Origin: Candidatus Heimdallarchaeota archaeon
Lineage (GTDB): Archaea > Asgardarchaeota > Heimdallarchaeia > Hodarchaeales > Hodarchaeaceae
Direction of reading: 5' to 3'
Assembly: GCA_048881705.1 (NCBI GenBank)
Contig: JBHLSH010000086.1
Location: 1-15,078, forward strand
Length of the DNA stretch: 15,078 bases
Below the pieces are notes generated by a model. It worked only from the letters and a program-made list of their open reading frames with translations, was not told where the DNA came from and searched no databases. Made by a program: the position numbers and the translations under genes. Positions 1,778-2,124 of the stretch are shown one piece after another. Numbering within the stretch: the first letter of the stretch is position 1; every line of letters starts with the position of its first letter.

Positions 1778-1808
1778 TGTTGACCTTAGCCATCCGTTTT
1801 GCCGGGGT

Positions 1809-1853
1809 TTTCTCTTCCACTCACGAAGCTGCGGCTGAAGGAGAGAACTCGAT
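1809..1853 (+). other. Non-canonical tRNA intron (45 nt) at position 8/9 of tRNA-Ser
   Basis: Strict hBHBh' motif. Outer helix G1801-C1856 and C1802-G1855; central helix CGGG(1803-1806)/CTCG(1848-1851); bulges GT|T and AT|A; inner helix TTCTCTTC(1810-1817)/GGAGAGAA(1840-1847). Confidence 0.88.
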
Positions 1854-1865
1854 AGCCAAGCGGAC

Positions 1866-1888
1866 AGGTACTCAGTCCTTCCACGCAC
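1866..1888 (+). other. Non-canonical D-loop tRNA intron (23 nt) of tRNA-Ser, ~20a/20b
   Basis: Insertion bounded by the repeat ACA (1864-1866, 1887-1889). Best BHB register: GCGG(1860-1863)/ACGC(1883-1886) with 3 G-C pairs, bulges AC|A on both strands, inner GG/CC pairs. Confidence 0.78.
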
Positions 1889-1906
1889 AACGGCGCTGGC
1901 CTTGAG

Positions 1907-1926
1907 GCTTTTATATCAGGTAAGAT
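1907..1926 (+). other. Canonical 37/38 tRNA intron (20 nt) of tRNA-Ser
   Basis: Strict BHB: CTTG(1901-1904)/TAAG(1921-1924), bulges AG|G and AT|A, inner pairs C1908-G1920, T1909.G1919, T1910-A1918. Confidence 0.92.
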
Positions 1927-2124
1927 AGCCAGTGTACATATGTACTCAGGGGTTCAAATCCCCTCCCCGGCGCTTTCCATTGCTTATAGGACTGTGAACC
2001 TCCTCTCTTTCCACGGATATCTGTCCCACAGAGAGTACTATTAAAAAGGCTTGAGATTCTCCCAAGTTTAGCAATAAAACTGCTCAATTAAATCTTAAAC
2101 ACTGTGGTTTTTTATTTAGTATAG

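Follow-up and report, generated by a model that had tools for sequence, protein, structure and literature searches.

Non-canonical and multiple bulge-helix-bulge (BHB) introns in tRNA genes are classic in the Thermoproteales, where an intron at position 3/4 is cited as the extreme 5′ case (Sugahara 2008, reviewed in PMC4090602). BHB motifs in the acceptor stem have been mentioned (PMC6379350), and according to a 2015 review class II tRNAs had no known translocatable intron (PMC4390854). Asgard archaea have an (alpha-beta)2 EndA with a broad-specificity L1 loop (PMC5829648), and introns occur in 92–95% of the tRNA genes of Atabeyarchaeia and Freyarchaeia (PMC11291895). Under-annotation of tRNAs has been published for other Asgard classes (PMC11291895; preprint bioRxiv 10.64898/2026.10.13.758758). 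The preprint pools a few introns in 'acceptor stem and junctions' as 'other' and calls several Heimdallarchaeia lineages intron-poor (10.64898/2026.10.13.758758), and the first-intron offsets tabulated for Atabeyarchaeia-1 in the 2024 supplement are all at least 15 nt from the 5′ end (PMC11291895). The original prediction of the gene described here had placed multi-intron tRNAs mainly in Thermoproteales and a few other lineages; that restriction to mainly Thermoproteales no longer holds, and intron-rich Asgard tRNA genes were published in 2024 and 2026.

We analysed a window of 15,078 nt, the whole of contig JBHLSH010000086.1 (C86) in the 3.96 Mb, 155-contig assembly GCA_048881705.1 (G000), which is 91% complete with 7.5% contamination. 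At 1801–1972 it holds a tRNA-Ser(UGA) gene with three introns, the first of them at position 8/9. Like the genes of Atabeyarchaeia and Freyarchaeia/Jordiarchaeia, it has several short BHB-type introns in a host with a two-subunit EndA, and it shares with intron-rich Asgard genes the D-arm intron missed by standard software and the apparently repeated gain and loss of introns among close relatives. It differs from those of Atabeyarchaeia and Freyarchaeia in the class of its host, which is Heimdallarchaeia (Hodarchaeales), and in the position 8/9. With the Thermoproteales it has in common up to three introns per gene, an (alpha-beta)2 EndA and strict or relaxed BHB motifs, and, as with their 3/4 intron, an intron so near the 5′ end must draw flanking sequence into its motif; the phylum, however, is different, the host tRNA here is of class II, and the pairing of the leader is supported by covariation. 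In split and permuted tRNA genes (Nanoarchaeum, Caldivirga, Cyanidioschyzon; PMC4033280, PMC3978253) leader or trailer sequence outside the mature tRNA likewise forms a helix beside the BHB, but here the exons are colinear in one 172-nt transcript unit and neither trans-splicing nor a circular intermediate is needed.

The 8/9 position had been called very unusual. That it is rare stands; the stronger wording is tempered by the few introns that the preprint places at 'acceptor stem and junctions'. In the literature that we covered, we found no publication naming tRNA intron position 8/9.

Gene anatomy and the tRNA set of the genome

The features of the locus, in window coordinates, are as follows.

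1316–1777, + strand: upstream ORF of 153 aa, a neighbour kept in all 21 genomes with the gene
1793–1799, + strand: 5′ leader bases −8 to −2 (TCCGTTT), pairing with exon-2 bases 1858–1864 (AAGCGGA)
1801–1808, + strand: exon 1, acceptor 5′ strand G1–G7 plus U8; joined directly to exon 2 in seven copies lacking intron 1
1809–1853, + strand: intron 1 of 45 nt at position 8/9; its hBHBh′ splice motif is full and is supported by covariation and shuffles
1854–1865, + strand: exon 2, consisting of A9, the 5′ strand of the D stem and the greater part of the D loop; near-invariant in 20 orthologues
1866–1888, + strand: intron 2 of 23 nt, inserted in the D loop behind GGAC (about 20a/20b); its splice motif is relaxed
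1889–1906, + strand: exon 3, comprising the last part of the D arm, G26, the 5′ strand of the anticodon stem and loop bases 32–37 (anticodon TGA)
1907–1926, + strand: intron 3, 20 nt, at the canonical position 37/38, with a strict motif in this genome
1927–1972, + strand: exon 4, running from A38 through the 3′ strand of the anticodon stem, the long variable arm, the T arm and the 3′ acceptor strand to G73

When the sequence was re-cut, the exon and intron counts, lengths and coordinates of the original prediction proved exact: four exons of 8, 12, 18 and 46 nt and three introns of 45, 23 and 20 nt, so that the gene is indeed more intron (88 nt) than exon (84 nt). ARAGORN accepts the joined exons as an 84-nt class II tRNA-Ser(tga). 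The spliced cloverleaf that it draws has an acceptor stem of 7 bp, U8, A9, a D stem of 3 bp with an 11-nt loop, an anticodon stem of 5 bp with the loop CUUGAGA, a variable-arm stem of 4 bp, a T stem of 5 bp with the loop UUCAAAU, and the discriminator G73. The product therefore has the long variable arm, the G73 and the UGA anticodon in a 7-nt loop with U33 that characterize a class II tRNA-Ser; the CCA end is not encoded. On the unspliced DNA of the window, neither ARAGORN nor any of the Rfam models at its gathering score gave a match at this locus.

Two other gene types were considered and rejected. The four exons follow one another in the normal order, on a single strand and within 172 nt, which rules out a split or permuted tRNA gene. 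[quoted passage not shown]

The upstream ORF stops 23 nt before the start of the tRNA gene. An A/T-rich, TATA-like stretch at 1751–1763, within the last codons of that ORF, is the only obvious promoter candidate and a possible TATA box for tRNA-Ser(UGA). The stretch codes for a peptide end that is itself conserved, which accounts for its conserved position.

The original prediction had raised the question of whether this is the only Ser(UGA) gene. Neither the mature sequence as query nor ARAGORN found a second one in this assembly of 91% completeness and 7.5% contamination, and the gene is apparently the only copy. UCA accounts for 22% of the serine codons in 1437 long ORFs and, with no other Ser(UGA) copy found, the tRNA of this locus is needed.

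Whole-genome ARAGORN with intron search called about 35 tRNAs, with a single, unconvincing Ser label ('aga'). Several of the calls are implausible, such as Asn(att), Stop(tta) and genes with introns of 212–249 nt, and the true tRNA set is therefore largely hidden. The suspicion that tRNAs are under-annotated in this lineage is thus borne out, both by these calls and by the failure of ARAGORN and Rfam at the present gene. In an attempted genome-wide census, relaxed BHB-like motifs were very frequent by chance (>100 per gene), and ARAGORN with intron search passed many mutually contradictory spliced products.

Other interrupted tRNA genes were seen in the same genome. A second hidden gene in the window, at 8–143 (+ strand), is a tRNA-Ala(CGC) that has G3·U70, encodes its CCA and contains two insertions, one in the D arm and one in the anticodon loop; ARAGORN misses it unless it is spliced first. 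An interrupted tRNA-Leu(UAA), with insertions in the D-loop and at 37/38, lies on contig C88 at about 6190–6355 (− strand). ARAGORN wrongly labels as SeC a tRNA-Ser(GCU) at 21–134 (+ strand) of contig C105, whose long insertion lies within the variable arm or beside it. The D loop of this tRNA-Ser(GCU) equals in length that of the spliced tRNA-Ser(UGA) (11 nt).

Orthologues and intron content in the genus

A pattern built around the anticodon intron retrieved the gene from 19 species-level genomes, deposited as Candidatus Hodarchaeota, Heimdallarchaeota or Promethearchaeota; the lineage, guessed in the original prediction to be Asgard, is so. In total, 21 genomes of a single genus proved to carry the gene. 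The same 153-aa ORF immediately precedes it in all 21, and because of this synteny we treat the 21 genes as orthologous. Of 22 genomes of the genus, 14 contain the exact exon 1–gap–exon 2 pattern, whereas all 61 other genomes of the class lack it; the pattern is sequence-specific and maps this particular gene form only. A looser scan for that pattern gave, among the matches listed, chance matches in bacteria only.

The 8/9 intron is present in 15 of the 21 genomes. Seven copies in seven genomes lack it, one genome (G013) having a copy of each kind. In the 15 genes an intron of 36–49 nt separates GCCGGGGT from AGCCAAG. In the seven copies without intron 1 (in G011, G010, G005, G017, G015 and the L140 genome, and the second copy in G013) GCCGGGGT is followed directly by AGCCAAG, exactly at the predicted junction. 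Because these seven run through the junction, the joining of exon 1 to exon 2 is confirmed without a splice model.

Introns in the D-loop and at 37/38 are found in every orthologue, and some have a further intron in the T loop, at 59/60. The genus thus has four intron sites (8/9, D-loop, 37/38 and 59/60), with two to four introns per gene. In the six genes whose 59/60 motif was scored, the outer helix is the 5-bp T stem, the central helix is complete (4/4) in four and 3/4 in two, and four have an inner helix of 9 bp. Four-intron versions occur in G003 and G007 (L150 3179–3418; L134 6210–6436; L163; L164). The 59/60 intron of G007 has a 3/4 central helix and a 9-bp inner helix; the T-loop motif of G003 lies outside the scored set.

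Ten orthologues spliced at the homologous sites each yield a tRNA-Ser(UGA) of 83–85 nt according to ARAGORN. Their exons are near-identical and their introns strongly diverged, and two T-stem pairs have changed compensatorily relative to this genome.

G013 has two tandem copies (L015, about 1251–1489 and the next ~190 nt). In the first, which contains the 8/9 intron, the acceptor strands are mismatched (GCTGGGA versus CTTGCAT); it is probably a decaying duplicate. The second has no intron 1 and has the T-loop intron.

Splice motifs of the three introns

A BHB consists of two 3-nt bulges on opposite strands with a 4-bp helix between them, and is cut after the second base of each bulge. The central helix at intron 1 is formed by C3–G6 (1803–1806) with 1848–1851, the four intron bases preceding the last two of the intron (CGGG with CUCG, 4/4 pairs, one of them G·U). 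The bulges are G7 U8|U and A U|A9, and the inner helix has 8 bp (1810–1817 with 1840–1847). The outer helix, G1C2/G10C11 (C2–G10 and G1–C11), continues past one U/C mismatch into the leader, where −2 to −8 (1799–1793) pair with 1858–1864 of exon 2.

There is a T on both sides of intron 1, and cuts placed at 8/9 or at 7/8 yield an identical product. Only 8/9 sets both cuts at the standard place in 3-nt bulges, so that the original placement between U8 and A9 fits BHB geometry exactly. The motif had also been called perfect, and it has all four central pairs, both bulges and both flanking helices. Likewise correct was the remark that the acceptor stem must open: the central helix occupies nt 3–6 of its 5′ strand, which makes the motif incompatible with a closed acceptor stem and hence with the cloverleaf.

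None of 20 000 shuffles of intron 1 equalled its central plus inner helix, and an origin of the motif by chance is therefore excluded. Among 65 acceptor/T-arm brackets in the genome, intron 1 is the sole 8/9 candidate with a long inner helix, and no other near position 8 is comparable. A third such bracket, at 10927–11211 of the window, looks like coding sequence and was set aside.

The 5′ part, when folded by itself, favours a slipped continuous helix as its minimum-energy structure (−27.6 kcal/mol); the BHB conformer (−24.2 kcal/mol) lies 3.4 kcal/mol above it, so the enzyme would need to capture or stabilize the BHB form. The leader helix occurs in both folds. Shuffled controls fold almost as stably as the 5′ part (z of −0.9 to −1.6).

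Two further ideas about the 5′ region were dropped. A C/D-box guide RNA inside intron 1 was rejected by eye, CUGA being seen and a C box absent. A leader copy of the acceptor 5′ strand, able to pair with bases 66–72, was sought as a conserved 7-mer up to 70 nt upstream in 14 orthologues, and none was found; the best upstream matches to the acceptor 5′ strand fall in coding sequence at about −64.

To measure covariation of the intron-1 motif, the sequence from leader through exon 2 was aligned for 15 orthologues and pairs were counted per cell. Pairing was found in 95.5% of motif cells, versus 25–43% with partners slid by 1–3 columns. We prefer these slid controls to a test in which 0 of 500 shuffles reached the observed pairing or covariation score of the alignment, because related sequences inflate the shuffle measure. 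The inner helix has compensatory (both-side) changes in four of five pairs. In the central helix, which is complete (4/4) in 14 of the 15, the four pairs alternate solely between G-C and G·U.

The leader helix (−8 to −2 with exon 2) pairs in 97% of cells in the same 15 orthologues, and one of its seven pairs is compensatory (GC in 12, GU in one, AU in two). It is present in all 15 genes with intron 1 versus three of the seven copies without. Those three retain a pairing leader that includes the A:T variant, and conservation of the helix might in part reflect inheritance or another purpose.

Intron 2 has a relaxed motif. Its central helix GCGG/ACGC has three of four pairs, with a G·A mismatch, its inner helix has 2 bp, and the outer helix is absent except for the D stem across an internal loop. 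Being relaxed, and equalled by 556 of 20 000 shuffles (2.8%), the motif is weak when taken alone. The boundary can slide from −2 to +1 nt (four positions) with the product unchanged. In 20 orthologues the homologous structure pairs in 91% of cells, versus 40–59% with partners slid, and shows almost no covariation. No orthologue without intron 2 was found among the 21 genomes, so its junction rests on the conserved geometry, on the D loop of 11 nt that results and on the equally long one in tRNA-Ser(GCU).

Intron 3 is strict in this genome (CTTG/TAAG, 4/4 central pairs, bulges AG|G and AT|A) and relaxed in most congeners; 53 of 20 000 shuffles do as well as its motif.

The GCGG of exon 2 is shared between motifs: it pairs with the leader in that of intron 1 and forms the central helix of intron 2. 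The two motifs are therefore mutually exclusive, and would be used one after the other.

Splicing model, probable intron loss and meaning

The genome has two genes of the EndA catalytic-domain family (PF01974). One encodes a 182-aa alpha subunit that aligns end to end and without gaps with the catalytic subunit of Aeropyrum pernix (3p1z_B, E 1e-41); by our reading of the alignment it appears to keep the crenarchaeal broad-specificity loop and the Y/H/K catalytic residues. The other, of 213 aa, is EndA-like, with its best match to the non-catalytic part of the Methanopyrus enzyme (5x89). The pair is in line with the (alpha-beta)2 EndA published for Asgard archaea (PMC5829648). RtcB is also encoded. 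Judged from these proteins, the host has both an endonuclease suited to non-canonical sites and the RtcB ligase.

We are confident that 1801–1972 is a functional gene, the sole tRNA-Ser(UGA) gene found in the assembly, matured by EndA/RtcB splicing of three BHB introns. The gene would be transcribed with a short 5′ leader. Acceptor bases 3–6 would pair with the 3′ end of intron 1 to form the 4-bp central helix, excluding the cloverleaf for the time being, and leader bases −8 to −2 would pair with the D-loop exon (AAGCGGA) and lengthen the outer helix. [quoted passage not shown] We infer the cleavage itself, the order of its steps and the presence of the leader when intron 1 is cut. The mechanism would be ordinary archaeal splicing in a rare place, where the leader serves as part of the splice signal.

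The role of the leader can be read differently. The gene and its introns could be real and the pairing of leader and D loop have no role in splicing: RNase P would act first, EndA would cut a shorter motif made of the central and inner helices with only G1C2/G10C11 outside, and the leader would be kept for transcription start, RNase P recognition or descent. We consider this rather unlikely, although the same leader, A:T variant included, persists in three orthologues that have no intron 1, compensatory change is limited to one of its seven pairs, and EndA of broad specificity has been reported to cut motifs without one flanking helix (PMC5829648, PMC6379350). The distribution of the helix (15/15 with the intron versus 3/7 without) speaks for a role in splicing, and G:C, G:U and A:U at one position suit a pairing better than a sequence signal. 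The three exceptions, moreover, nest among genes with intron 1, as recent loss would lead one to expect, on a tree of a single short gene with a weak backbone. Less probable still is that the cuts at intron 2 fall elsewhere, lengthening or shortening the D loop, or that this intron leaves only once some other rearrangement has taken place. Its relaxed motif with the 2-bp inner helix, a boundary degenerate over four positions and the absence of an intron-2-free orthologue would allow this, but the homologous cut gives an 11-nt D loop in 20 of 20 aligned orthologues, this length equals that in the tRNA-Ser(GCU) of the genome, and the structure is compatible in far more cells than with slid partners.

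That the locus is a decaying pseudogene or non-functional relic, with UCA read by another tRNA, is very improbable indeed. Standard finders do miss the gene, and the first tandem copy in G013 has mismatched acceptor strands. Yet the introns diverge around near-invariant exons, both the T stem and the splice-motif helices show compensatory changes, the assembly offers no other Ser(UGA) gene, and the same ORF adjoins the gene in 21 genomes.

Returning to a functional gene with three spliced introns, we turn to their history. In a tree of the neighbour ORF, which is one short protein and gives a weak backbone, G017, G015 and G010 form a subclade (97/97) without intron 1 and with the pairing leader and the remaining introns kept. 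This subclade nests in a clade (90/83) whose other members have intron 1, which points to a precise loss of intron 1 in the subclade. G011, G005, L140 and the second G013 copy are also free of intron 1 and have unrelated leaders. Pending a proper species tree, we regard intron 1 as old within the genus and lost several times.

A bolder proposal, which we offer tentatively and only as a whole, is that 8/9 introns are a recurrent, so far undescribed type of tRNA intron in archaea, with a splice motif that borrows the acceptor 5′ strand and the leader. The order of events would be fixed (intron 1 with the leader attached, refolding, then the D-loop intron and RNase P), and the subclade would have lost intron 1 by recombination with a reverse-transcribed, partly processed intermediate. 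If this is true, the precise loss in the subclade is a trace of how such introns disappear.

Hodarchaeales are among the archaea placed closest to eukaryotes. The locus explains why their tRNA sets seem incomplete to standard software: the sole UCA-reading serine tRNA is mostly intron, and pipelines blind to such introns will under-count tRNAs in this lineage. One tRNA with two to four introns at four sites in one genus is a natural series for intron gain and loss. The pairing of leader and D loop makes the testable claim that flanking sequence and processing order belong to the splice signal.
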